From a virus: DNA of 64,000 nucleotides. Positions 2,569-44,900 of the stretch are shown piece after piece (positions within the stretch are counted from its first letter, which is position 1; the number at the start of each line of letters is the position of its first letter). Where the stretch lies: the IMG/VR virus record IMGVR_UViG_3300045988_118025, positions 3,783 through 67,782 of that record; one strand, given 5' to 3'. Below the pieces are notes generated by a model, which worked only from the letters and a program-made list of their open reading frames with translations, was not told the DNA's origin and did not search any database. Made by a program: the position numbers and the translations under genes.

Positions 2569-2820
2569 ATGGAGAAAAGAGACAAGGAAATGCCTTACGA
2601 GGTAATCATACAGGAGAGAAACAAAGTGGATTTATACGGTAACGTAGTATATTATATCTATTGGTTTGATAAATATGGGTACAATATCACAAACGAATGG
2701 AAATTCTGGAGCAAGGGTCCGAAAAAGAAATACGATAGAGTTAATCGTTATCTAACGGATAGTTGGCTGAAGGAATACTGTGGGAATAACAATTTAAAGA
2801 TAAGTAGAATAAAGGAATGA
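2569..2820 (+). CDS. hypothetical protein
   Basis: 83-aa ORF with AGGAGG RBS 7 nt upstream; ATAGGTG motif at 2523-2543. Confidence 0.45.
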   Translation: MEKRDKEMPYEVIIQERNKVDLYGNVVYYIYWFDKYGYNITNEWKFWSKGPKKKYDRVNRYLTDSWLKEYCGNNNLKISRIKE

Positions 2821-3332
2821 AAACGATAAAAGTAGACAAAGTGATATTATATTACATGGATCGGGTAGACCCTGACGGGAACTTATACCGGTTCTATGTG
2901 TATAAAGGAATGGCATCTGAAATAGAATACTTTTGTACTGAAGAGGCAGGTAATATGACCATACCAATCGGAGAAGGAAAGTATGTCAAGATCGTACCAA
3001 AAGAAATAGAGAAAATACCAGTAAGGGGATATAGGAAGCTTGTTGGAATATGGAATCGTGAAACATGTAACGGGAAGGGATGGTATAGGCTTTTTAATTA
3101 TTTCAAATACAAGCCGACCCTGTGTTATTTTAAAAAAGCGGGATATGATAAAAATGGGAACACAAGATACGAAATATCATTATTTAACAACATTATAAAT
3201 GTGACAAGGTATTTTGATCTGTGGAGAATGAAGCCAGGAAAGTATGTTATGGTAACAAACGAGTGTGGCGCCTTGGATGTTATAAAAGAAAAATTTGATA
3301 ACATAAATATAGTGGAATATGGATCTGAATGA
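2817..3332 (+). CDS. hypothetical protein
   Basis: 171-aa ORF, ATGA overlap with upstream gene. Confidence 0.45.
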   Translation: MKTIKVDKVILYYMDRVDPDGNLYRFYVYKGMASEIEYFCTEEAGNMTIPIGEGKYVKIVPKEIEKIPVRGYRKLVGIWNRETCNGKGWYRLFNYFKYKPTLCYFKKAGYDKNGNTRYEISLFNNIINVTRYFDLWRMKPGKYVMVTNECGALDVIKEKFDNINIVEYGSE

Positions 3333-3678
3333 ATTGTACAAAGAAATAGAAAAAGCAGAGGTTGATCTGAATGCAAAAAGATTAAAGTACATCAAAGAGG
3401 CATTAGTGGAGAACGGTGGAAGTATAAAGCTAAAATTTAAAAAATGGGGAGAAGATAATAATGCGTTTGACTTTGATGTTCAGTTTCCGGTGATAATAGA
3501 AATTGCTGGGATTCCTATGTTTTTAACGGAGGTGTATGTCAAAAAAAACGATTTTTGTATGGTTCTGCTGGATTATGATGATATGACTTTAGGTGATTTT
3601 GATAATACAGGGGAAAATGAACAGGTTGCTTATTTTATTAACTATTGCTTAAATCAAGACAAAGATGGGAAAGAGTAG
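3319..3678 (+). CDS. hypothetical protein
   Basis: 119-aa ORF. Confidence 0.4.
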   Translation: MDLNELYKEIEKAEVDLNAKRLKYIKEALVENGGSIKLKFKKWGEDNNAFDFDVQFPVIIEIAGIPMFLTEVYVKKNDFCMVLLDYDDMTLGDFDNTGENEQVAYFINYCLNQDKDGKE

Positions 3679-3853
3679 AAAAGATTATGAGAAGTTTCTT
3701 AACTCAATATCTCCAGATAGAGACGATGAGGCATGGATCATTGGAGGAAAGAACAGGTATTGCGGTAGAGAGAATTATGGCACTATGATCAAAAGGTACG
3801 ATCCTATTGGTTTTAATGTAGGGTACAGAGAGTGGGTGAAACAGCCAGAGTAA
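3665..3853 (+). CDS. hypothetical protein
   Basis: 62-aa ORF followed by GC-rich hairpin. Confidence 0.35.
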   Translation: MGKSRKDYEKFLNSISPDRDDEAWIIGGKNRYCGRENYGTMIKRYDPIGFNVGYREWVKQPE

Positions 3854-3878
3854 GACGGCGCCCGCCCTGCCATGAGGT

Positions 3879-3905
3879 CGGCCTGGCTGTCTGTGGCCAG
3901 GGCCG
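3879..3905 (+). terminator. GC-rich imperfect hairpin (terminator candidate)
   Basis: cggcctggc ... gccagggccg imperfect inverted repeat in an otherwise AT-rich intergenic gap after the 3665..3853 ORF. Confidence 0.3.
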
Positions 3906-3946
3906 TATATTAGTCAGATAGTGAACGACGAAAACAATACAAATAT

Positions 3947-4426
3947 TTGTTAATCATGAGAGTAGAAGATTTAACGAAGTTTGAAGGGGAATGTCCTATT
4001 ATAGTAGTATTTAGCACATATATGGATATACGGATTCCTTTAACAAAGAAATGGAAGAAAATCATTAATGAGAAAGAAGATAAACCAAACACATATCATA
4101 ATAATCTGATTGATTATATTTCAGGACAGATAGAGTTGTCCGGATTCAACATGAAAAGCATCGGGAACCTGTTAATAAAGAAAATAGTTTTCAATGAAAA
4201 CAATTACTACAGGTATAACAACATAGAAGGATTCCCGATAACTATCAACGATTTGGGATATTGGGATAAAAACAGAGTAAGGCTAAATGAAGATTTTCAC
4301 ACTGTTAGGCTGTTTAATACGGTAAGTGTATATGGATTGATATTTGAATCCATAAAACAAAATAATTTCATTATGCTTGAAAACGATATAATGCAGATCA
4401 AGGTTGGAGGAATAACTTACATCTAA
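3947..4426 (+). CDS. hypothetical protein
   Basis: 159-aa ORF. Confidence 0.45.
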   Translation: MLIMRVEDLTKFEGECPIIVVFSTYMDIRIPLTKKWKKIINEKEDKPNTYHNNLIDYISGQIELSGFNMKSIGNLLIKKIVFNENNYYRYNNIEGFPITINDLGYWDKNRVRLNEDFHTVRLFNTVSVYGLIFESIKQNNFIMLENDIMQIKVGGITYI

Positions 4427-4437
4427 AGAAATAAATC

Positions 4438-5193
4438 ATGAAGCTATTATACTTAGTAGAGTCAGGAGAATCGAAGTTCCTTGTCTTCGACGAAATGCCT
4501 GATAAAATTAGCACAAAGTACGGAGATGATACCATTATTGGAAGGATAGGAGGTATATTCTATGATTTCCTTGCAAAGAGGAATGAGAGAAGAGAAGCTT
4601 TCGGAGGTAGAAAGTTCGATATCGTACTTGACAACGGAAAGGTAGAGAAGTGTGAAGGACAATGGTGGGATGAGGTGACAGACAGATCCAAGGAAGAATT
4701 GGAAAAAGAAGGGAATCCATTTTCTAAGATGATGTTGATCGGTGTTTCTTCAGTAGATAGATTATTGGATTGCTATGTGTATTGCGGGCTATGGGCATCC
4801 GAAAGCAAGATTGAAGAAATGATAGCTGATTACAAAGGTCGTATATATGAGTATTACGAATTTAAGGAAGAGGTCATTAATAAGATAAATGAGACCCTTA
4901 GAAAATCATATATTCAATCTTGGAAAGAACGGATAATACGATCTGGGATGAGACAGAAAAAGAAAGACGTGTTTGAATCACCGGATGGATTGTATATTGA
5001 GATGGTATATGAGAACAAAGCGTTTGTGCCATATAGACCTATAAAAGAAATCCAGGATTTACCTATAGATGCAAAGTACATACCGCTTCTTACAAGGATA
5101 TTTGGAAAGAACATACTTGCGGAGATAGGAGGAGGTAAGATATTTATAACTACCGGGAAATACGCTGTAAATTTTTGGTGCTGGGGAAAATAA
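4438..5193 (+). CDS. hypothetical protein
   Basis: 251-aa ORF. Confidence 0.5.
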   Translation: MKLLYLVESGESKFLVFDEMPDKISTKYGDDTIIGRIGGIFYDFLAKRNERREAFGGRKFDIVLDNGKVEKCEGQWWDEVTDRSKEELEKEGNPFSKMMLIGVSSVDRLLDCYVYCGLWASESKIEEMIADYKGRIYEYYEFKEEVINKINETLRKSYIQSWKERIIRSGMRQKKKDVFESPDGLYIEMVYENKAFVPYRPIKEIQDLPIDAKYIPLLTRIFGKNILAEIGGGKIFITTGKYAVNFWCWGK

Positions 5194-5243
5194 AATTATG
5201 TATATAGTTATATTGCTGAATTTTAATTTATAAATAAAACAAT

Positions 5244-5939
5244 ATGGAAAGAAAAGTATCAGTTTACCCGTTCCCCTTTGGAACAAGGGTATTTATGCAC
5301 AGAAACGGAGTGATTCATGAAGCAGAATATCGCGGCATGAGAATAAAAGATACCGGTATTTGTGGAAACAACGTGGATACCGAACATATCTTTTGGTTTG
5401 GCAGCAAATTGGGAGAGGAAAAATTTAAGGTAAGTATGCCCATATACAAAACCGCTGAAGATGCAGCACAAGAAACCAATCCTGTACAATATGAGGTGTT
5501 GAATATAGAGTCTTTTTCTTTAAAATACTTACCGTATCTTGTCTGGGATGGCATACAGTTCTGTGGTTGGCTATGGGATGGTTCAAGACCGGTAAAGAGA
5601 GCAACACGGGAACCTTTAAGGGTTTGCAAAATTTATGGAGGTAAAGTTACCTTCGTTGATTATAGCGGAAACGAGTATTATGCCGAACACTTTCGGCGAT
5701 TCTATCAGACCGCAGAACAATGTCGGGAGGCAAACAAACCAAAAATTGTCATGCTGGATAAAGAAGAGGGTGATTTTGCAAAACAGAAGCGTGATGAATT
5801 TTATGCTTACATCAAGCATTATTGTCCCGGCTTTGAGGATAAAATCGAGTGGGAATATTTCCAAGCATATAAAACTATGCCGTGGAATCTGTCTCAACAA
5901 GTAAAGTTTTGGAGTAATTATGGAATTGCCTTTAAATAG
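5244..5939 (+). CDS. hypothetical protein
   Basis: 231-aa ORF. Confidence 0.5.
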   Translation: MERKVSVYPFPFGTRVFMHRNGVIHEAEYRGMRIKDTGICGNNVDTEHIFWFGSKLGEEKFKVSMPIYKTAEDAAQETNPVQYEVLNIESFSLKYLPYLVWDGIQFCGWLWDGSRPVKRATREPLRVCKIYGGKVTFVDYSGNEYYAEHFRRFYQTAEQCREANKPKIVMLDKEEGDFAKQKRDEFYAYIKHYCPGFEDKIEWEYFQAYKTMPWNLSQQVKFWSNYGIAFK

Positions 5940-5946
5940 TTAGTAT

Positions 5947-6261
5947 ATGACATTTAAAGAATTTATGCAAGAGAACGGCTATGACCTGATAACTACCTTT
6001 TGGGAAGATTTCAGCATAGCCGACAAGTATGGTATAGCAGGTGTCAAAGATACTTACAGACGTGCGTTTAGTGAATGGAAAGACGATTATAAGTTCTTTA
6101 CAGAATTGACGCTGGTATTGAATCATAAAATCTGGCAACATTATAAAAGCAATCGTGAACTGGCTGCATTGTATGACCGGTTGTGGCGGGAAGCTGACGA
6201 GTATGCCATGAACAACTTTAAGGGAGAAGAACTTGATTATTATTACAGAATAACAGATTAG
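5947..6261 (+). CDS. hypothetical protein
   Basis: 104-aa ORF. Confidence 0.45.
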   Translation: MTFKEFMQENGYDLITTFWEDFSIADKYGIAGVKDTYRRAFSEWKDDYKFFTELTLVLNHKIWQHYKSNRELAALYDRLWREADEYAMNNFKGEELDYYYRITD

Positions 6262-6264
6262 CTA

Positions 6265-6444
6265 TGTTATATCCGTTTTCATTGACGCTTGATTTATATA
6301 TACAAGCCGAATCGTTTGAAGAAGCCAAGAAATTAGCGGAAGCATACGTTCAAGATGCTTCGTTAGATACGACTAACTATCCGGAAATAGTGCAGGATGT
6401 ATTGGAAGTAGCAGAGTATGGGATTATTGATGTAGAACAATAAA
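6265..6444 (+). CDS. small hypothetical protein (59 aa, below ORF-track cutoff)
   Basis: ATG at 6265 to TAA at 6442-6444 (MLYPFSLTLDLYIQAESFEEAKKLAEAY...); fills an otherwise empty 188-bp gap in a compact operon. Confidence 0.3.
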
Positions 6445-6449
6445 CAATC

Positions 6450-6770
6450 ATGGAAGCGAAAATCAAAATAGACGTATTATGTTTTGACGTCTCAGATATC
6501 GATATTATCACGGTAAACAACAGATTAATGGAAACACTAAAACAGAATATAGATCTTCCAGAAAAAGAAAAGTTGAGAAGATTGAAGGAAGCCAAGGGAG
6601 GGACATGGTATGACGGATGGCGCCCATACTGTATGATGTGCAACAGAAATGACAGGATGGTTAGTGAACCTTATGGTTTTAGGTGTCCACAGTGTGGGAA
6701 TATGATAGGATTTAATCTAAAGAGATTGAAGGAATCATCATTAAATAATGCTTCCAAGGAGGTTGTTTGA
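6450..6770 (+). CDS. zinc-ribbon protein
   Basis: CMMCNRND ... CPQCGN four-Cys arrangement. Confidence 0.45.
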   Translation: MEAKIKIDVLCFDVSDIDIITVNNRLMETLKQNIDLPEKEKLRRLKEAKGGTWYDGWRPYCMMCNRNDRMVSEPYGFRCPQCGNMIGFNLKRLKESSLNNASKEVV

Positions 6771-6809
6771 TACAAGATGTGAAATATAATAAACAAAAAA
6801 AATAGCGAA

Positions 6810-7094
6810 ATGAAAGAATTTATATTTGAAGTAGAAAGAAGGGTTTATGGATGGATGAAAGATAGATTATCCATTGAAGCAGAAACACCAGAAGAGGCTT
6901 TGAAAAAGCTTAAAGAAATGGCAGAGGATGGAACCAAAAATGGATGGGATGAAGATAGGGTCGGATTAGAGAGCTCTGAATTTGACTATTATGAGGTAGA
7001 GTATCCTACTGTAGAAGAAAATAAGGGAGCTACAATTTTTATTTCACATTTAGATTCTTGTTTAGGATGGGATAATGAGGAGGAAGAAAAATGA
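6810..7094 (+). CDS. hypothetical acidic protein
   Basis: 94-aa ORF. Confidence 0.4.
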   Translation: MKEFIFEVERRVYGWMKDRLSIEAETPEEALKKLKEMAEDGTKNGWDEDRVGLESSEFDYYEVEYPTVEENKGATIFISHLDSCLGWDNEEEEK

Positions 7095-12206: not shown

Positions 12207-12947
12207 ATGAAAAATTCAATTATTGTTCCGTTTGATTTAAATACGGCGAGAAAAATTAAAAGCGGAGAAATAGAAGGTTCAGTATTAATTGGTAATATTG
12301 AAATAGAATTTGTATATGAGTCGAAAGACTGTGCAGGTCCTTATAATTTACTTTTTGTAAGAAAAGATGAATATGGAATAAGCGCTATATATGCTAACAC
12401 AGAAGGTTGTGCTCTTGACGATACCACTCTGGAATTGAGGGTAGAGGCTGGAGCGTATTTTAAGGAAGGAGATATATTAACAAGCACTAAAGGATGTCAA
12501 TTCATATATGATGGACTTATTACCGAAGGGGCAATGGGAAGTATATGCGGAATGACAACATATGGAGATCTTGAGTTTGATCGTTGCACATTATGGACTG
12601 ATGTGTATGACAGAGATAAAAATCGGAATGTAAGAAAGGCTATAGAAGAAGAGAAGAAATTTTTAGCAGAAAAGATTATAAAAGCCGAAGACAGTAGAAA
12701 AATAAATATAATAAAAAGATATTTAAGTGAATATGAGCATCTATTAGATGAGATGCCGAAACACGACTTCAAACCATTTGAACGAGTGCTGGTGAGAAGA
12801 ACTAACCAAGAGAGGTGGAAATTGCATTTATTCTCCAGAGGATCAGGAACATATGACGAATATGAATGTTTGGGAGGCGTAACATTTAGTCAGTGTATCC
12901 CATACGAAGGGAACGAACATCTTTTAGGAACTAACAAACATTTTTAG
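12207..12947 (+). CDS. hypothetical protein, paralog A of a duplicated gene pair
   Basis: 246 aa. N-terminus (IVPFDLNTARKIKSGEIEG) and C-terminus (HDFKPFERVLVRR...EGNEHLLGT) are clearly homologous to the 13297.. gene. Confidence 0.5.
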   Translation: MKNSIIVPFDLNTARKIKSGEIEGSVLIGNIEIEFVYESKDCAGPYNLLFVRKDEYGISAIYANTEGCALDDTTLELRVEAGAYFKEGDILTSTKGCQFIYDGLITEGAMGSICGMTTYGDLEFDRCTLWTDVYDRDKNRNVRKAIEEEKKFLAEKIIKAEDSRKINIIKRYLSEYEHLLDEMPKHDFKPFERVLVRRTNQERWKLHLFSRGSGTYDEYECLGGVTFSQCIPYEGNEHLLGTNKHF

Positions 12948-13296: not shown

Positions 13297-14035
13297 ATGG
13301 AACATAAAATGGTGACAATACCGTTTGATTTAGAAACGGCGAAGAGAATAAGAGAAGGGGAAATAGCAGGTCGTATTGTGACAGAGAAAGGACAAAATAG
13401 AGCAGAAATCGTATATGAAGACAATTCGTCAAATTGTCCGTTATTGGTTGTAATTCATTCGATTTCTGTATCGGCAGACTGGTTTTCTGCTACAGGAAAA
13501 GCACTTAGCAGCGCAAATCGACTCCTTCTTGAAGTTCCAGAATATACTACGTTTAAAGATGGAGAGGTGTTAAGTAATAAAGATGGTAGCTATATCTTTA
13601 TTTTAAATACACATGGGAAATATTTAACGTCTTTTTATGCCTCTTTAAATCAAAAAGGTATTCTTAAAATAGAAGATGGTTTATCTGCTTGGGAAAATCA
13701 GATAGAAAAATACAGATTTGCCACTGAATCCGAAAGACAAAAGTTGGTTGACGCATTAAAGGCAAGCAAAGAACCTGAAGCTAAAGAGTATCTGAAACGC
13801 TTCTTCGGGATTGAAGAAAAGCTGAAATATGATTTTAAGCCGTTTGACAAAGTGTTGGTAAGAAAAGAAGGAAATAAAAAAATGGAATATCAGTTTGTTT
13901 GCAAGGGAAATTGTGGACGATTATAATGGATTGCCTTATAAGTACGAATGTTCCAATGGAACATTATGGGATTATTGTATTCATTTTGAGGGTAATGAAT
14001 GTCTTTTAGGAACTACTGAAAATCCAGAAAAATGA
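13297..14035 (+). CDS. hypothetical protein, paralog B (needs +1 frameshift at A7 run 13876-13882)
   Basis: Frame-A ORF 13297..13926 ends ...KGNCGRL. The +1 frame continues ...WNISLFAREIVDDYNGLPYKYECSNGTLWDYCIHFEGNECLLGTTENPEK to the stop at 14033-14035, and matches paralog A's C-terminus. Confidence 0.45.
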
Positions 14036-14630: not shown

Positions 14631-14885
14631 ATGTATGAGAATATTTTAAGCAACATGTTAGGATGTCAGACATATTGTATATCAGACAGTCCTTCAAATA
14701 GGTACTGTTTTATTGGACCTATTGAGTGCAATGAGAAGTTAATAGAAGTGTTTAAGAAGGGGATAACAGTAAAACTCAAATACGTGGAAAAACGGGTCCT
14801 GGATACATTTACGGACAACGGAATCGACCTGAGTAATTACACTCATTGTATTATCGTAAAGCGGAATTTTTATCTCGCTTGGTAA
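14631..14885 (+). CDS. hypothetical protein
   Basis: 84-aa ORF. Confidence 0.35.
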   Translation: MYENILSNMLGCQTYCISDSPSNRYCFIGPIECNEKLIEVFKKGITVKLKYVEKRVLDTFTDNGIDLSNYTHCIIVKRNFYLAW

Positions 14886-14903: not shown

Positions 14904-15566
14904 ATGAACAATTTTGTAATAGATACTCCAGATAATTTCTGGCAAATAAGATGGCTTGACAAGTATATGGAAGGTCACAAGGGGTTCATAGCTGGTGGAT
15001 GTTTTAAGAATATCCTTTCCGGAGAAAGAGTAAAAGACATTGATATTTTCTTTGAAAGCGAAAGCGATTTTCAGGAGGCTGTTGATTTGTTCAATGATGA
15101 AAAACATCAGAAAGAAGGATGGAAATTTAAATATAGAAATAAGAAGGTATGCGCATTCCAGAAAGAGGGAGAAAAGGTATGGGTAGAGTTCATAGAGTCA
15201 GAGTTTGGAAAGCCGAAAGAGATTCTTAGGAGCTTCGATTTTACTGTGGCAAAAATGGCTTACTATAAGGAGCCTAAATACGAAGAAAAGGAAGATGATT
15301 ATTTTCCATTCTCATCCGCAAGCATAGTAGCATACGAATATAAGCTACTCTATCATGAGAAATTCTTCGAACATCTTCATATGAAGAGGCTGGTAATTGA
15401 CGAAAATATTCCTTTTCCGGTAAGCACATGGGAGCGCTCATATCGGTATAAAGGATATGGTTACAATATGTGCCGGGAGACAAAGAAAAAACTTCTACAG
15501 GCTCTTAAAGGTGTAAATGTAGAGGAGGAAGATGTATCTTTGTACACTACTGGAGGATGGGATTAA
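14904..15566 (+). CDS. Pol-beta superfamily nucleotidyltransferase with CCA-adding/poly(A)-polymerase-like head motif
   Basis: IAGGCFKNILSGERVKDIDIFFESE matches the GG-x-[VF]-[RK]-[DN]-x-L-x-G-x4-D-I-D signature of the class II tRNA nucleotidyltransferase head domain. The protein is only 220 aa, so it lacks the full body/tail. Confidence 0.5.
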   Translation: MNNFVIDTPDNFWQIRWLDKYMEGHKGFIAGGCFKNILSGERVKDIDIFFESESDFQEAVDLFNDEKHQKEGWKFKYRNKKVCAFQKEGEKVWVEFIESEFGKPKEILRSFDFTVAKMAYYKEPKYEEKEDDYFPFSSASIVAYEYKLLYHEKFFEHLHMKRLVIDENIPFPVSTWERSYRYKGYGYNMCRETKKKLLQALKGVNVEEEDVSLYTTGGWD

Positions 15567-16024
15567 CCTATAAAACAAAATTGCTTATGAAAACATTAGA
15601 ACAACTTAAAGAATTAACATCAAAATGTTTAGACGGTAGAGATTTTAATAGACTGGCTAAATTTGTTCCATATAGCATGATAAAGGATTTCGGTATGGAG
15701 CCGAATGAAGAATATGACAACGAGGAAAAGTGGAACAGTACTGTAGTTGAATTTACCAGAGAAAATGTCCTGAAACAGCTTGAAGAAGACGTGAGATTCG
15801 GTTTTGAAAAGGCATTAAATCAGAGAGGAATATCAGCCAGTTTAATGTTTGAATGTGTAATGATGTGGAACTACATCCTGGAAGAAGGTCTTGAAGACTG
15901 GGATGAGGATGATTATAGATTTTACGGGCTACCTCTATTTAAAGCTACGGCTGTAAAATACGGATGGGATAATCCTATAGGGGAAGACAGCGGGAGAGAA
16001 AGAAAATATGATTCACAGTATTAA
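15557..16024 (+). CDS. hypothetical protein
   Basis: 155-aa ORF overlapping the upstream stop. Confidence 0.45.
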   Translation: MGLTYKTKLLMKTLEQLKELTSKCLDGRDFNRLAKFVPYSMIKDFGMEPNEEYDNEEKWNSTVVEFTRENVLKQLEEDVRFGFEKALNQRGISASLMFECVMMWNYILEEGLEDWDEDDYRFYGLPLFKATAVKYGWDNPIGEDSGRERKYDSQY

Positions 16025-16035
16025 ATGGGCATATC

Positions 16036-16890
16036 ATGAGCACAAGTAAAGAATACAAGGCAGTAAGGAACTGTATATTAAATGAACTTCACCTTACCAA
16101 AGAAGATATAATCAAAAACATAGAGCCGTTATTGGAGAAACACGTAAAACGGTACATGGTTAATACATATGGAGGTGACAACCAGATAGAAAACTGGATC
16201 AGATGCATGGTGAATGATGAACTCAAACGAAGAGATCATGATTTTGTAAGAAAAACGTGCGAGAGCGTCATCAGGGATCATGTATTAAATGAGTTGAATA
16301 TAATCGTAAGATCCAAAAGTGAGAAATGTACATGTGAAAACAGAGTACCATCCGAAGAGGATAAGAAAGAGTCAACTGACGGACTGTATATAATCTACAA
16401 AGACGGACATGTAGAGCCGTTTACCGGCAATAACTCCAAAGATTGTGTACGATACATTGGGTTGAAGCACAGATACATGTCATTTGCAATCTCACTGACG
16501 GAGCATGATATCATACAATTGCTTGACGATGATAGCCGTGAAGAATCCGGAAGTGAGACATATTACGAATGTGAATGTGATGCGCTGTTTGACATTAATG
16601 GACGCGGCAATACGGAACGCCTTGTAGTCAGAAATCCAAAATTGAGAAATCTGCTGGAAGATGGCGAGTATATACCATCTCTTGGTCAATTAAATTTAAT
16701 GGCCCATTATATGGACGAACTAAACAAAGCATTCGCTTATGTTTCGGCATCTCCCCTCTCCTCGGCGTGGTATTGGTCCAGTACCGAGTACAGCCAGGGC
16801 AGCGCATGGTTTGTGAGCTTCTCCAATGGCATCACGAGCTACAACTACAAGTACAATAGTGGCAGGGTTCGGACGGTAATTGATTTTTAA
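16036..16890 (+). CDS. protein with C-terminal DUF1566 (Lcl C-terminal-like) domain
   Basis: C-terminus SAWYWSSTEYSQGSAWFVSFSNGITSYNYKYNSGRVRTV matches the WWSSTE...AW.V.F.NG...K....VR.V pattern common in Bacteroidota. Confidence 0.5.
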   Translation: MSTSKEYKAVRNCILNELHLTKEDIIKNIEPLLEKHVKRYMVNTYGGDNQIENWIRCMVNDELKRRDHDFVRKTCESVIRDHVLNELNIIVRSKSEKCTCENRVPSEEDKKESTDGLYIIYKDGHVEPFTGNNSKDCVRYIGLKHRYMSFAISLTEHDIIQLLDDDSREESGSETYYECECDALFDINGRGNTERLVVRNPKLRNLLEDGEYIPSLGQLNLMAHYMDELNKAFAYVSASPLSSAWYWSSTEYSQGSAWFVSFSNGITSYNYKYNSGRVRTVIDF

Positions 16891-16902
16891 AAAGGATTAC
16901 AT

Positions 16903-17700
16903 ATGATAACATTAGTAAAAATAAAAGACAACACAAAAACTCCTTTTGAATATGCTTCTGACATAGAAGCGTTTGAAAATGGCAGAGAATTTATTTTCAA
17001 GCCAGGAGTGAATGTGATTATAGGGAAAAACGGTAGTGGAAAATCAACTTTGCTTAACATCATATCAATGTATGCGTTGTGCGAGAAATCCATGTGCTCT
17101 GAAATGCCGGCTGAGGCGCTGGATTTTCCACCTATATTTGATGATGATGACAAGGTTCTTGATGGGATTGATATATCATCCGATTATATAGGGAAAGTAT
17201 TCCGTTTATTGCCGTCAACGGAGACAAATCGAGATAGTGTATTAAAAAACATCAGCAATTTCGATTTGTATGCGAATAGTATTCAAAAATCTTATGGGGA
17301 AAAAGTGGTGTTATCATTGGAATCACTTTTCAATTTAATGTTCAGCCAAAAGGATTATGCGTTTCCAATGCAAGATCTTGCAGAATACAAGAAAAAATCA
17401 AATGCATTTTGGATTAAAAGAATTGACAACCTGTTGAAGTATTATAGAAGGAACTGCATAACATTAACAGAAAGCAGTTTTGAGTACACGGTTCTCATGG
17501 ATGAGCCAGACAGGAACCTTGACATTGACAACATAATGCAGATTCACAATGTATTGTCATTTCATAAACCACAAACACAAATTATAGCCATAATACACAA
17601 TCCGGCATTGATTTACAAATTAAGTAAATTAGATTGTGTGAATTTCATAGAGATGACAGAAGGGTATCTTAATAAAACTTGTACATTTGTGTCTAACTAA
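16903..17700 (+). CDS. small standalone ABC-type ATPase
   Basis: Walker A GKNGSGKSTLLN, candidate signature SYGEKVVL, Walker B/D-loop VLMDEPDRNLD, H-loop AIIHN; 265 aa with no transmembrane or coiled-coil insert. Confidence 0.65.
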   Translation: MITLVKIKDNTKTPFEYASDIEAFENGREFIFKPGVNVIIGKNGSGKSTLLNIISMYALCEKSMCSEMPAEALDFPPIFDDDDKVLDGIDISSDYIGKVFRLLPSTETNRDSVLKNISNFDLYANSIQKSYGEKVVLSLESLFNLMFSQKDYAFPMQDLAEYKKKSNAFWIKRIDNLLKYYRRNCITLTESSFEYTVLMDEPDRNLDIDNIMQIHNVLSFHKPQTQIIAIIHNPALIYKLSKLDCVNFIEMTEGYLNKTCTFVSN

Positions 17701-17711
17701 TTAAAGGTGAG

Positions 17712-18026
17712 ATGAACTGGAAGAAATTCAAAGAGGAAAAACCTTCAGAGGGAGAAGAAGTGTTGGCTTATCACCCAAGTTGGATAGATGAAGATTTCAA
17801 CCCAAGAGGTATAAGAATAGGGTTTTGGAATGGAGGAGACGATTTTAAATCGGCTCATTGGTGGGATTATCAAGATTGTTATATCACAATCTCTCATTGT
17901 GATTGTGATGATAATTCTCTTTTCAGTGATAGAATAAAAAACAGCATAGAGCCAGAGTTATGGATATCACTTGATGTTATTACAAATTACTTACCTGATA
18001 TAAAACAAAATCACTTATCACAATGA
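17712..18026 (+). CDS. hypothetical protein (DUF551-like N-terminus)
   Basis: MNWKKFKEEKPSEGEEVLAYH resembles the W-x-P-x-GEEVL start of phage DUF551 proteins. Confidence 0.35.
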   Translation: MNWKKFKEEKPSEGEEVLAYHPSWIDEDFNPRGIRIGFWNGGDDFKSAHWWDYQDCYITISHCDCDDNSLFSDRIKNSIEPELWISLDVITNYLPDIKQNHLSQ

Positions 18027-18406
18027 GCTATTTTATATTAATGGGAAGAAGAATCCCCAAGCAAGCCATAACAGGCTTCAAATTTCAAAATGAAACAGAT
18101 AACATTCGTCCTTTCTTGTCAATCAGGATAAGAGGGAAGGAGGAAATTATACCCTTTAAAGATAAAAGGGAAATACTGTCTGTAAAAGCGCATCTGTGTT
18201 CTGTCTTCTCCGAATTTGTAAAAATAGGCGACTGGTATCTCAAGATGTCGGAGGTTAAGGAATATAAGCCGGTGACTGCCGAAGACATGAACCCCTACAT
18301 CTTGTTTAAGACATCTAAATTCGGGAATATAAAAGTTCGTTTTCTGAAAGACGAAGATATGGATGCCGAATTATTGGTGTTAGATCAACTTTTTGATGTA
18401 GAATAA
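18023..18406 (+). CDS. hypothetical protein
   Basis: 127-aa ORF, 4-nt overlap with upstream gene. Confidence 0.45.
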   Translation: MSYFILMGRRIPKQAITGFKFQNETDNIRPFLSIRIRGKEEIIPFKDKREILSVKAHLCSVFSEFVKIGDWYLKMSEVKEYKPVTAEDMNPYILFKTSKFGNIKVRFLKDEDMDAELLVLDQLFDVE

Positions 18407-41231: not shown

Positions 41232-41720
41232 ATGGAAAATAATTTAAAACTCGTATGTCCAAAATGTGGCACCCCTCACCAGCCTCATTCTCCGCACACG
41301 ATGGATGCAGATGGATTTGAAAGGTGTGAGATAAGAACTGTTATGGAAGACAGGGGATGGTGCTACGAATGTTCTTTTTGGCAAAACTTGTACGACAAGC
41401 ACAAAGACGATCCTGGATGGGTTAGGATAGACGGTGTAAGCTGGGTGCTTAAGCCTATGGTGGAAAACGTACCGAGCGGATGGAACAGCCTTGGATGTGG
41501 TGGAAGAAAAATGTATATCAATATCGAAGGGAAAGGCATTGTTACATCAAATAACTGCTGGTGTCAAGGTGATGTTTCGGACGCATTCAAGGATCTTATG
41601 CCTGATAATGCTACTTGGGCTACGAAGGAGGAATTTGACAAAGCTCCTGTAGTAGGATATATTGTAGAAGGTATTGGTTTAGTTTTCACAGATAGGGAAG
41701 GTCATGAAGTTAATGCTTAG
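41232..41720 (+). CDS. Cys/His-rich hypothetical protein
   Basis: CPKCGTPHQPHSPH...CYEC...C...C. Confidence 0.45.
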   Translation: MENNLKLVCPKCGTPHQPHSPHTMDADGFERCEIRTVMEDRGWCYECSFWQNLYDKHKDDPGWVRIDGVSWVLKPMVENVPSGWNSLGCGGRKMYINIEGKGIVTSNNCWCQGDVSDAFKDLMPDNATWATKEEFDKAPVVGYIVEGIGLVFTDREGHEVNA

Positions 41721-41757
41721 AGACTTAGGTAATTATATACCTTTTTCATAACAAAAG

Positions 41758-41794
41758 AAACCGGTTCTCTATCATCTCTGACTGAGAACCGGTA
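41758..41794. terminator. bidirectional rho-independent terminator between convergent + and - strand gene blocks
   Basis: AACCGGTTCTC-(14 nt loop)-GAGAACCGGT perfect 10/11-bp stem, with A-rich and T-rich tracts on either side. Confidence 0.6.
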
Positions 41795-41929
41795 AGAAAA
41801 CAATTTCAGAAAAAATTAAACCTACATAATCTTTCAAGTAAGAACAAAAAACGTACAATCTACTCTTTGACGATGCTAATATAGCATATTGAAATCATAC
41901 AAAAACAATACAAGTCTGATATTCTTCGT

Positions 41930-44900
41930 CTATTTGTAACTAACATCATCGTCTCCTTCCGAATCAGGAGTGGCGCCGATGAAGAACATCATTGACTTGT
42001 TGTTCGTCTGCTGCCACCAATTATAGGCGCGCGCTACGTCTTCCGGCGTCTTAATGTTATACCATTGTTTGATAAACGTCTGTTTGGCGAGTTGCCTAAA
42101 TAACTTAGACTCTCCCTTGTATGTACCAGATGTTACTTTGTCAAGTGAATAATTCCTAAGATCGGTAAGATCCTTCAGCTTCCGTCCCATGACGAACGGG
42201 TCGTTAATGATATCTACCACGTTAAGCTCCATAATAAACGGCATCTGTGAAGCTATTTCGTTTATGGTTCTGAATCCGACATAGGATCCGAATTGAGTAA
42301 GCCGACTTTCTTCGTTTTCATCATCATCACGCCATCCGGCAAGAAGCATAGATACGGCCTGCATGATAAGGAACGTGCCGGCATAGACACTGAGACGTTT
42401 GAGATTAGTTTTCTCTACCTCATTCATATTGTCTTTATTTTCGTTCCAGGCATCTATGATGTTTTTCATACCAGACTCGGAAGCCAGGCTAAATGTTTTG
42501 GCTATCATATTCTTTAACGTAATTGACAGTCCTTCCTCTTCTTGCATTGTCTGGAAATTGAAGCCACGTCTTTTCCACAGACGTTGAGCCGCCAGCACCA
42601 ACCATCCTCGGTGGGCGGTCATGAACCTGGCTATCCAGTTGCGCGATGCGGCAGTTCGGTTTTCTTCATTCAAAGATCCGTTACATATCTGCGACAAGCT
42701 ACGGACTTGATTTCTGGTTATAGCCATCTGGGTTTCAACTTCCTCAACAGTAACACCTGATCCGGGCTTTACAACCACCTTCCCATCCACGACGTCTACC
42801 ATACTCCATAAAGTACGATCTTTTAATGCATTCCATTCTCTTTTTATGGTACTCTGTTCTTTATTGCGTTCTTTTTCCATCTTGAAATCTTGGAACGTAT
42901 AGAACCGGCCTTTGTAATAACGAACATTGTCCATAGTAGCAATCATAACCTGCGGATTAAGAGGGTAGTTCAGGATTTCCATAAAAGCATACATAGGTGA
43001 ACGCATTAAGGTCCTGGCTACTCTATTGTATCCGGCACCATACATACGATTTCGGATATTGAATATTCCCATTCTCTCACCTATGACATATAATTTGCTT
43101 TTTCTATCTATATCTCCGGTTTCTGCTATACAAGATGGCGCAAGACGAGAAAACTCAGCCGATGCGTATTTAAGGGAGTCTTTGCTTATATACTGTCCTA
43201 CGGCAGATTCCATGATGAGGTTGATATGACCTGTTAAGGCGCCGGTAGCTGCCACAAACGGGGACAGCGCCAGGTTCATAACCGACATAAATCTTTCAAC
43301 GGCCATCATTATCCTGGTAAGGTCTACCGTATATCCTCCGATGTTCACCGTAAGTTTTTTGGTGTTCATCCTAATGCCATAATAATGGTCATTGAAGAAG
43401 TCCCTGAACATCTGATATGCTTGGGTTGCTTCAGCCTTCTTACCGCCTTCAAATTGCTTATTCAGTAACATCTGCTCCAGTCCTTGGGCAAGCTCTATAG
43501 ATTTCTGCTTTTCGTTGTATAATGATGATTGCATCATAAGCATCGAATAAGAGTAACCAAAATCATGAGATACGTCATCTTGGTTCTCTAATTCATATAT
43601 GTAGTATTTAGGTATGGACCGAACCCTATCTTCCGGATCATATACCTCACCCTGGCGTGTTTTACCATACAGGGAGTCATCTACGCGGTCAAGACATAAG
43701 TCGGATACGAAGTTCCTGACCGTACTTTTAAGGCTGATACCTAACCCTTCTATACGTTCTATATCTTGTTTGGATATCTGTGGAATAGCATACAGGTTCG
43801 GGCTCTGCTCTTTGTATAGATCAAGGGATTGTCTTTTTATTTCCTTGAGTTTTTGAATCATATTCCACTGCTCTACGTTTTTAGTAGCGACCTCATTACC
43901 ATCAGCATCATATTTGATACCAAAGTCATTGAAATACGATTCATCACGATACAGGCTTTTCTTGGGCATACGATGACCATACCCATGATCTTTTACATAA
44001 TCAGGATTACGACCGCTATTTTCGGCTTCAGATTCAGCCACCCACGCTCTTGCAGGGTCGAAAGACAGGTACGATATATTCATACCATAATCTTGTGTAG
44101 ATGTCCCGTTCTGTACGTCTTTAACCATCTGTGCCACGTCTATCTCACCTCGACCTATTTTACTAATCATAGCCGCATATCCGGTAGGTGCCATGCGTTT
44201 ATAGTACGAAAAGACCTGGCTCCTGGCAAATTCATTAACGATCGCATTAGCTTCTTCTATACCTGATTCTCTTGTGTTATTTAAAAATAAGCTGGCCATC
44301 TTAGCATTGACAGCATTCCTAAAATCTCTACCATCTAATTCTTTGCTTATTCCAAGCTTTTCTGACAGGTAGTTGATTTCAGATACGGTAAACAGATATC
44401 GGTTATCAGCAGCCTTAAACAGCTTATCCCTTAAAGCCTGAATCCTTTTTGCTTTCTTTGCCGTAGTATGACGTTGCACAAACTTCCATTCCACTTCCTT
44501 GGAGTCAGCAAGAGCATTTAAATAAGACTGATTTACTTCGTTTTCAGCCTTACTGCTTTTAGTAAGGTACTTATCAATATCTTCAAGACCCACCATCTTA
44601 GCATAATCTATTAAGATAGCGTAATCGGTTTCAATAGCTTCGGATGCAGCCCTAAAAGCATCTCTTTCAGATGAGGTAAATGTTGCTTCATTGATTTCTC
44701 CGATATCAGCCACGTCACGGTTGTTGCCGATTATTTCCTTGATAATAGCCTTATTTTTTTCTATATCTTTTACAATCGAATCCACGTCAGTTGCATCTCT
44801 ATCACTTGTCGTAGAACTAATGATGTCTTGTGCCATTTTAAGATACGAAGCCTTGTTATTTGATTCGGTACGCGCCGATTGTTCTGATTCTACGTCATTC

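Follow-up and report, generated by a model that had tools for sequence, protein, structure and literature searches.

Introduction

Few anti-Gabija proteins have been validated, and Gabija anti-defence 2 (Gad2) is among them. It was described as a 400-aa protein of the Bacillus phage SPbetaL7 (ORF_159), is predicted to be a nucleotidyltransferase (NTase), and lies within a dedicated anti-Gabija locus in SPbeta-like phages. Deletion of Gad2 renders SPbetaL7 sensitive to Gabija, and a homologue from a B. laterosporus prophage cancels Gabija defence. Here, we analyze a short relative of this protein, encoded by the first of six open reading frames (ORF1 through ORF6) that occupy positions 14,904 to 18,406 of a 64,000-nucleotide stretch of viral DNA (IMG/VR record IMGVR_UViG_3300045988_118025, positions 3,783 to 67,782; hereafter the window). 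An earlier note on this DNA had described the six ORFs as an operon-like cluster built around a CCA-adding-like NTase and a minimal ABC ATPase, with a possible function in counter-defence or in phage exclusion. Sequence comparison places ORF1 in the Gad2 family, as a short member that consists of the NTase domain only. What the locus adds to existing knowledge is this short-form Gad2 NTase in a probably crAss-like gut phage; the mosaic accessory region in which it resides is otherwise ordinary and does not constitute a new multi-gene system.

The whole 3.5-kb span is 92.7% identical to the corresponding part of the genome of phage csAssE-Sib from human gut (OR575929.1; 151,256 bp), on which a literature search found no paper, and the same genes occur on many metagenomic contigs of 145-155 kb. 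The source is probably a large gut phage of ~150 kb, of the crAss-like kind to judge from the ring, muzzle, and portal names in the csAssE-Sib annotation, with Bacteroidota as the probable host.

ORF1 and the Gad2 family

The precomputed Pfam assignment of ORF1 and of all its homologues is PF26128 ("Gad2"). This call rests on precomputed tables, and a local Pfam scan did not return PF26128; the homology was therefore checked directly with the sequences provided in the supplement of the Gad2 paper. Using hhalign, a profile of ORF1 aligned with the verified B. laterosporus Gad2 at a probability of 96.8% (E=2.7e-10, 142 columns) and with SPbetaL7 Gad2 at 95.8% (E=7.6e-9). BLASTP paired residues 26-202 of ORF1 with residues 26-177 of the B. 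laterosporus protein (24% identity, E=5e-12). Like ORF1, Gad2 is phage-encoded, and over the ~140-175 aligned residues the two have in common the motif series IAGG...D-x-D, FDFTV, HEDFxxH, and ...P..S..R..KY..GY. In NTase motif A, residues G31, G32, D45, and D47 of ORF1 are invariant among 27 homologues (alignment A1) and align with AGG...NDLDV of Gad2 (Table 1).

The two proteins differ in several respects. ORF1 is composed of 220 residues, compared with 394-400 for Gad2, and aligns only to Gad2 residues ~22-177; the identity to the verified protein is ~24%; and the probable source of ORF1 is a Bacteroidota phage, whereas Gad2 is found in Bacillota phages. Short forms with an AGGCFKN motif, 214-aa proteins of S. 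suis prophages, are already listed in the homologue table of the Gad2 discoverers, and a pairwise comparison of ORF1 with a 214-aa S. suis prophage protein yields 49% identity (E=3e-64).

A tblastn search located the short NTase in 141 GenBank phage records, 54 of which are Streptococcus phages, mostly those of S. thermophilus, with genomes of 31-40 kb. The remainder include Basilisk-like phages of Bacillus, Listeria phage P35, phages of Lactococcus and Maribacter, and Bacteroides fragilis phages, in which the identity reaches 55%. More distant relatives are encountered in phages of Aeromonas, Vibrio, and Klebsiella, and long forms occur among these, one being the 353-aa protein of Aeromonas phage phiA009. 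Short Gad2-type forms are widespread, from dairy streptococcal phages to abundant phages of the human gut, and may offer a minimal catalytic unit for working out the Gad2 mechanism. Their presence also suggests a Gabija-like pressure on Bacteroidota phages in the gut.

Directly upstream of ORF1 and in the same frame lies an 84-aa ORF (Table 1) that has no Pfam or PHROG match. Among 80 loci inspected at this junction, most relatives read TAA CGG CAA, with a single stop codon, and some read CAA CGG CAA, with none, which produces a true 311-aa fusion of the ORF to the NTase in the standard genetic code (311-aa homologues P0001 and P0005). Given these in-frame fusions in relatives, the unit of interest may begin at position 14631. 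Stop-codon recoding was considered as a source of the 311-aa products and rejected, as the fusion contig L104 carries a real CAA codon.

Proposed role of ORF1

The fold of ORF1 is that of a class II NTase head, and its best structural neighbours are CCA-adding enzymes and poly(A) polymerase (PAP). The head fold is common to ORF1 and to the class II CCA enzymes and poly(A) polymerase I (PDB 3H37, 3AQL, 4WBY, and 1MIV), and the resemblance is at the level of the fold. Head-only proteins of the CCA-enzyme type are also among the structural neighbours (PDB 2LA3, S. pneumoniae NP_344798.1, at rank 30), as are the small NTases of T7-like and other phages, which like ORF1 are head-only proteins, of ~180-250 aa. 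Within the BFVD database, the neighbours are the ORF1 family itself and assorted small phage NTases. The invariant FDFT motif (Table 1) is presumably the counterpart of the (R)RDFT motif B of class II NTases; candidate positions for motifs B and D, assigned by eye, read R-S-F-D-F-T and E-R-S-Y-R. The head motif of class II NTases and poly(A) polymerases that had been noticed in this 220-aa protein is real, with invariant GG and DxD residues and a likeness at the fold level, but the family to which the protein belongs is Gad2.

For ORF1, we infer NTase activity, early expression, and an anti-defence role with Gabija or another system as the target. The GG...DxD site would bind Mg2+ and NTP, probably with E95 as the third carboxylate, and the enzyme would transfer a nucleotide onto a 3'-OH or a small-molecule acceptor. 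Such an activity could blunt a nuclease-type defence of the host, for which Gabija provides the only precedent, so that ORF1 would most likely serve as an anti-defence enzyme. Taken by itself, an anti-defence role of some kind is a serious possibility that we place just short of an even chance, and action against Gabija specifically appears rather unlikely. Our overall reading, to which we give slightly better than even credence, is of a mosaic early accessory region in which ORF1 acts as a Gad2-family anti-defence enzyme and ORF4 is an independent ATPase.

Several points weigh against this reading. The proof of anti-Gabija activity covers the forms of 394-400 aa, and ORF1 is devoid of the C-terminal ~200 residues, which may be concerned with target recognition. 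According to a review of February 2026, the mechanism of Gad2 is not known, and to say that ORF1 works like Gad2 consequently predicts little. The predicted model of ORF1 is of moderate confidence, with a predicted local distance difference test score (pLDDT) of 73 that falls below 50 for residues 169-192. The short NTase is situated among genes for DNA or nucleotide metabolism in two other phage groups. Lastly, the complete genome of the related phage csAssE-Sib encodes six tRNAs (the four that were checked all lack an encoded CCA), a polynucleotide kinase/3'-phosphatase (Pnk), and a Ro60-like protein, a set that would be compatible with an RNA-end role. These last two points each correspond to an alternative.

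In Bacteroides phage BF486P3 and in contig L082, the NTase homologue is found between dUTPase and dCMP-hydroxymethylase/ThyA-like genes, and in S. thermophilus phage CHPC877 it is found between RecT and SSB/Holliday-junction resolvase genes. Given these neighbours, a role in replication or DNA modification would also fit: ORF1 might extend DNA 3' ends with nucleotides in the course of replication, recombination, or packaging, or might act on modified nucleotides, in which case any anti-Gabija effect would be a by-product. DNA-end sensing is named among the triggers of Gabija in a 2026 review, in keeping with such a role. On the other hand, uninformative small ORFs adjoin the NTase in the window and in several other phages, the gene has a patchy distribution between phages that are close relatives, which is typical of accessory genes and not of core replication genes, and Gad2 itself is located in a locus dedicated to anti-Gabija functions. 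We consider a primary role in DNA metabolism improbable.

In the second alternative, ORF1 would be a minimal enzyme for CCA addition or repair, with the task of either healing tRNA 3' ends that host nucleases have attacked or maturing the tRNAs of the phage. Beyond the gene content of csAssE-Sib and the structural neighbours described above, it draws on motif A, which fits class II CCA enzymes, and on annotation: one relative is labelled "CCA tRNA nucleotidyltransferase" and the csAssE-Sib homologue "polyA polymerase". At the level of sequence, however, the likeness to class II CCA enzymes and PAP consists of motif A. The ORF1 profile aligned with E. coli Cca (MG1655) over this motif only (23 columns, 0.5% probability), the PolyA_pol family (PF01743) scored 14.8 bits (E=0.038) against a cut-off of 23, and searches of PDB sequences with both the single sequence and the profile returned no match, an outcome that ranges from borderline to failed for membership of the CCA/poly(A) family. 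Judged by eye against the known motifs of the family, the two arginines of RRD appear not to be kept (S-F-D), and no EDxxR base-reading motif was seen (ERSYR). No RNA-binding domain families were found in ORF1, which ends at residue 220, and the neck domain and the tRNA-binding body and tail domains are absent. Because the NTase family is abundant in small phage genomes, including those of S. thermophilus phages (31-40 kb) and of Listeria phages, a role tied to phage tRNA genes is disfavoured, and a search of the 64-kb window identified no tRNA gene. Finally, host CCA-adding enzymes normally handle tRNAs that lack an encoded CCA. We regard the CCA-adding alternative as decidedly improbable, and the tRNA 3'-end repair function advanced in the earlier note is not borne out. 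Its broader idea of counter-defence survives for ORF1, by way of Gad2 homology, but neither as CCA repair nor as a six-gene system (see below).

The RNA-end genes of csAssE-Sib are located outside the region covered by the window (OR575929.1 positions 2615-7027 in the excerpt L098 and 72756-74725 in the excerpt L099). The tRNAs without an encoded 3'-CCA are tRNA-Cys, tRNA-Arg, tRNA-Gln, and tRNA-Met. Genes for tRNA-Tyr and tRNA-Lys adjoin that of the Ro60-related protein, and the polynucleotide kinase/3'-phosphatase gene is beside one for an NrnA-like phosphodiesterase. The tRNA, Ro60, and Pnk genes could be a toolkit for RNA-end healing or for counter-defence at the level of tRNA; the first 100 kb of this genome revealed no RNA ligase.

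Mosaic organization of the locus

Could the six genes, or at least those for the NTase and the ATPase, form one counter-defence module? They are tightly packed on one strand, no terminator-like site on the + strand interrupts the span, the NTase, ORF3, and the ATPase are retained in most close relatives, and ORF4 resembles the ATPase heads of defence systems (the PtuA, retron Ec83 ATPase, AriA, and GajA profiles). The same packing nevertheless extends across a 41-kb block, and the scan for σ70 promoters and terminators is uninformative for this kind of phage, with σ70-type promoter-like sites being rarer than in shuffled sequences.

The distribution of the genes provides further evidence. The set of close relatives consists of 81 loci that are >92% identical, and synteny at greater distance was judged instead from divergent homologues and GenBank phages. 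Across GenBank phage records, 141 contain the NTase versus 2 that contain the ATPase. In nine loci with a divergent NTase and eight with a divergent ATPase, tblastn over several kb detected no other ORF of the six. Even among the 81 close relatives, each gene has its own pattern of presence: ORF3 is found in 78, the ATPase in 75, ORF6 in 63, full-length ORF2 in 42, and ORF5 in 35. In 31 of the 81 loci, only the last ~20% of ORF2 is kept, ~720 nt further downstream.

Insertions, replacements, and deletions of cassettes occur between and within the six genes. At one locus that was read (L005, 6682-7155), the ORF2 slot, directly after the Gad2-like gene, is occupied by a 157-aa Dam-type DNA N6-adenine methyltransferase (Pfam Dam, E=1.1e-15). 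Dam methyltransferases are classic anti-restriction genes, and the presence of one in this slot is consistent with a locus for anti-defence cassettes. Elsewhere among the relatives, a further ORF of 117 aa follows the ATPase, or ORF5 has given way to one of 56 aa (L012), and csAssE-Sib has an additional 73-aa ORF before the ATPase.

Because the distributions of the genes differ, their co-occurrence ends outside the immediate lineage, and the slots are mosaic even in relatives that are >92% identical, a six-gene module is unsupported, and we consider it very improbable that the six genes, or the NTase and ATPase among them, form a single functional unit as had been proposed. The best reading of the region is a hypervariable early accessory or anti-defence region with independently exchangeable gene slots rather than a fixed operon.

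ORF4, a stand-alone ABC ATPase

ORF4 contains the full complement of motifs of an ABC ATPase (Table 1). The earlier note had recognized a 265-aa stand-alone ATPase with Walker A, Walker B, D-loop, and H-loop motifs, all of which are confirmed here, and to these we add an SMC-type S-x-G-E signature. Conservation of the motifs was assessed in an alignment of 29 homologues (alignment A2). Between the S-x-G-E signature and Walker B is a helical insertion of ~45 residues, which is composed of helices 156-164 and 168-184 in a predicted model of good confidence (pLDDT 85). ORF4 scores above the Pfam cut-offs for SMC_N, AAA_23, and AAA_21, and falls below that for ABC_tran (24.5 versus 25 bits), which matches Walker A only. 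As an ABC ATPase head it resembles PtuA of Septu, the retron Ec83/Eco7 ATPases, and the heads of Rad50 and SMC proteins. ORF4 presumably dimerises around ATP and would be soluble.

An exhaustive profile search returned 182 family clusters (at 50% identity) with E<=1e-30. Because nearly all members are 245-290 aa in length and are matched end to end, ORF4 represents a complete protein and not the truncated N-terminal half of a larger one. No permease was found next to ORF4 or in eight other ATPase contexts, in agreement with the ABC_tran score and with the earlier view that the ATPase has no transporter partner. Likewise, no nuclease, effector, or other neighbour of the ATPase was conserved across the contexts examined. 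Elsewhere, the homologues are located among small, early-type phage or prophage genes, adjoining YopX and helix-turn-helix/M78 repressor genes. In another phage-like lineage (contigs L101-L103), the gene for the 264-aa homologue P0203 closes a block and immediately follows two radical-SAM genes, and contig L100 has a gene with a TerD domain near its ATPase homologue. The ~265-aa stand-alone ABC ATPases constitute a sizeable uncharacterised phage family and are candidates for anti-defence screens.

The resemblance to defence ATPases raises the alternative that the phage carries ORF4 and its neighbours as an exclusion or defence system against rival phages. The PADLOC profiles that match ORF4 are those of ATPases only (mad3 at 7e-17, AriA at 7e-12, LmuB, PtuA, and GajA), and the prophage-like contexts of the homologues would be compatible with exclusion. 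Only the top few of these profiles, namely mad3, AriA, and two others, match ORF4 in two stretches, however; for the rest, the best stretch is essentially the Walker A region. PADLOC detected no match for ORF1, ORF2, ORF3, ORF5, or ORF6 and no complete defence system, and no effector is conserved beside the ATPase. With generic P-loop matches limited to the ATPase, the exclusion system suggested previously receives very little credence from us.

A further and still less probable idea links ORF1 and ORF4 in an anti-defence island of the crAss-like phage, in which both would act against ABC-ATPase/nuclease systems of the OLD, Gabija, Septu, or PARIS type. Modification of the trigger or substrate, be it nucleic-acid ends or a nucleotide ligand, would fall to the NTase, and the minimal ATPase head would serve as a decoy or as a dominant-negative partner in a heterodimer. 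We judge this highly speculative; if true, a decoy-ATPase/NTase island would represent a new class of phage immune-evasion protein.

Gene layout and the remaining ORFs

The six ORFs are all encoded on the + strand (Table 1). They had been described as overlapping, but the sole true overlap is one of 4 nt between ORF5 and ORF6. An overlap of ORF1 with ORF2 would require that ORF2 start at 15557; the ATG at 15587 is favoured by other gene callers, by the GenBank relative, and by alignments with PHROG and Klebsiella-phage proteins, and leaves a gap of 20 nt. The remaining junctions are gaps of 11-12 nt, as they are across the rest of the 41-kb block. Because the entire + strand block from 1 to 41.7 kb is packed equally tightly, the close spacing is not particular to these six ORFs, and the label "operon-like" does not set them apart.

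Table 1. Positions of the six ORFs, the upstream ORF, and their sequence motifs in the 64,000-nucleotide window (aa, amino acids; A1 and A2, alignments of 27 ORF1 and 29 ORF4 homologues)
Feature	Position	Strand	Description
84-aa ORF	14631-14885	+	Same frame as the NTase; separated from it here by TAA TAG TAA
ORF1	14904-15566	+	220 aa; predicted short-form Gad2-family nucleotidyltransferase with class II CCA/PAP-type head fold
NTase motif A GGCFKNILSGERVKDIDI	14994-15047	+	ORF1 residues 31-48; G31, G32 ... D45-x-D47
FDFT motif	15234-15245	+	ORF1 residues 111-114; invariant in A1; aligns with FDFTV of Gad2
ORF2	15587-16024	+	145 aa (155 aa from 15557); phrog_5706, phage protein
ORF3	16036-16890	+	284 aa; lineage-specific, apparently fast-diverging; residues 79-284 common to Bacteroides phages
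Weak Lcl_C/DUF1566-like segment	16759-16878	+	ORF3 residues 242-281
ORF4	16903-17700	+	265 aa; complete stand-alone SMC/Rad50/PtuA-like ABC ATPase
Walker A GKNGSGKST	17023-17049	+	ORF4 residues 41-49 (G41-T49); invariant in A2
SMC-type signature S-x-G-E	17290-17301	+	ORF4 residues 130-133; invariant in A2
Walker B and D-loop YTVLMDEPDRNLD	17485-17523	+	ORF4 residues 195-207 (D200-D207); invariant in A2
H-loop H232	17596-17598	+	Nearly invariant in A2
ORF5	17712-18026	+	104 aa; orphan
ORF6	18023-18406	+	127 aa; orphan

ORF2 matches phrog_5706 (E=1e-49), with the alignment beginning at residue 11. Homologues that are 52-60% identical are encoded by phages of Klebsiella, Serratia, Erwinia, and Escherichia with genomes of ~157 kb, an unusually high identity across host phyla.

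The homologues of ORF3 are all at least 79% identical to it (79-96%), many of them as singleton clusters at the 90% level, and the flanking genes are 90-98% identical, which suggests a more rapid divergence of ORF3 than of the genes around it. Proteins of Bacteroides phages F1, F2, F4, and BS-TP1 have ~35% identity to residues 79-284, and the BS-TP1 protein is annotated as DUF1566. The DUF1566 domain (Lcl_C, PF07603) previously assigned to the end of ORF3 is recovered in part: the last ~40 residues align with positions 75-116 of the 117-position profile, its C-terminal third (E=1.8e-5), but the score of 25.5 bits does not reach the cut-off (34.9), and the other two thirds of the profile are unmatched. 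Precomputed matches list Lcl_C in ORF3 as "faint", and some close homologues do carry a precomputed PF07603 assignment. The C-terminus of phrog_4245 also matches ORF3 (E=2.3e-9).

ORF5 has no match in Pfam (even at E<=10), PHROG, NCBIfam, or PADLOC, and among GenBank phages it is present in csAssE-Sib only. The assignment of ORF5 to DUF551 (PF04448) finds no counterpart in these Pfam results or in the precomputed matches. ORF6 has no family match in Pfam, PHROG, NCBIfam, or PADLOC. Together with ORF2 and ORF3, these two would be accessory proteins unrelated to one another.

Genomic setting

The first 41.7 kb of the window form a single + strand block, in which small ORFs precede the replication genes, including helicases, a DnaB-like helicase, and exonucleases. 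The six-ORF span is situated in the upstream, mostly unannotatable part of this block, ahead of the replication genes. Large structural genes are encoded on the − strand from 41.9 kb onward. At the strand switch between the early/replication block and the structural block (~41700-41930), the signs of both the GC skew and the AT skew flip. A scan of 12-21 kb against Rfam returned no RNA family, and the repeats in the cluster are limited to short matches at the level of chance.

Mobile and diversity-generating elements are found in related genomes. In csAssE-Sib, a diversity-generating retroelement is annotated (VR/TR/IMH and a reverse transcriptase; L098 45751-47816), with a putative tail-fibre gene as its target, and two TnpB (IS605 OrfB) genes are located among the structural genes. 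TnpB and IS1595 insertions are present in the early regions of relatives L083 and L091.

Upstream of the cluster, the window contains tandem paralogues at 12207-12947 and 13297-14035 that have their ends in common (N-terminal PFDL.TA..I..GEI.G and C-terminal EGNE.LLGT). In the window, a frameshift has apparently divided the second paralogue into ORFs of 209 and 46 aa; some relatives have an uninterrupted 245-aa gene (L089), and others one of 209 aa (L090).

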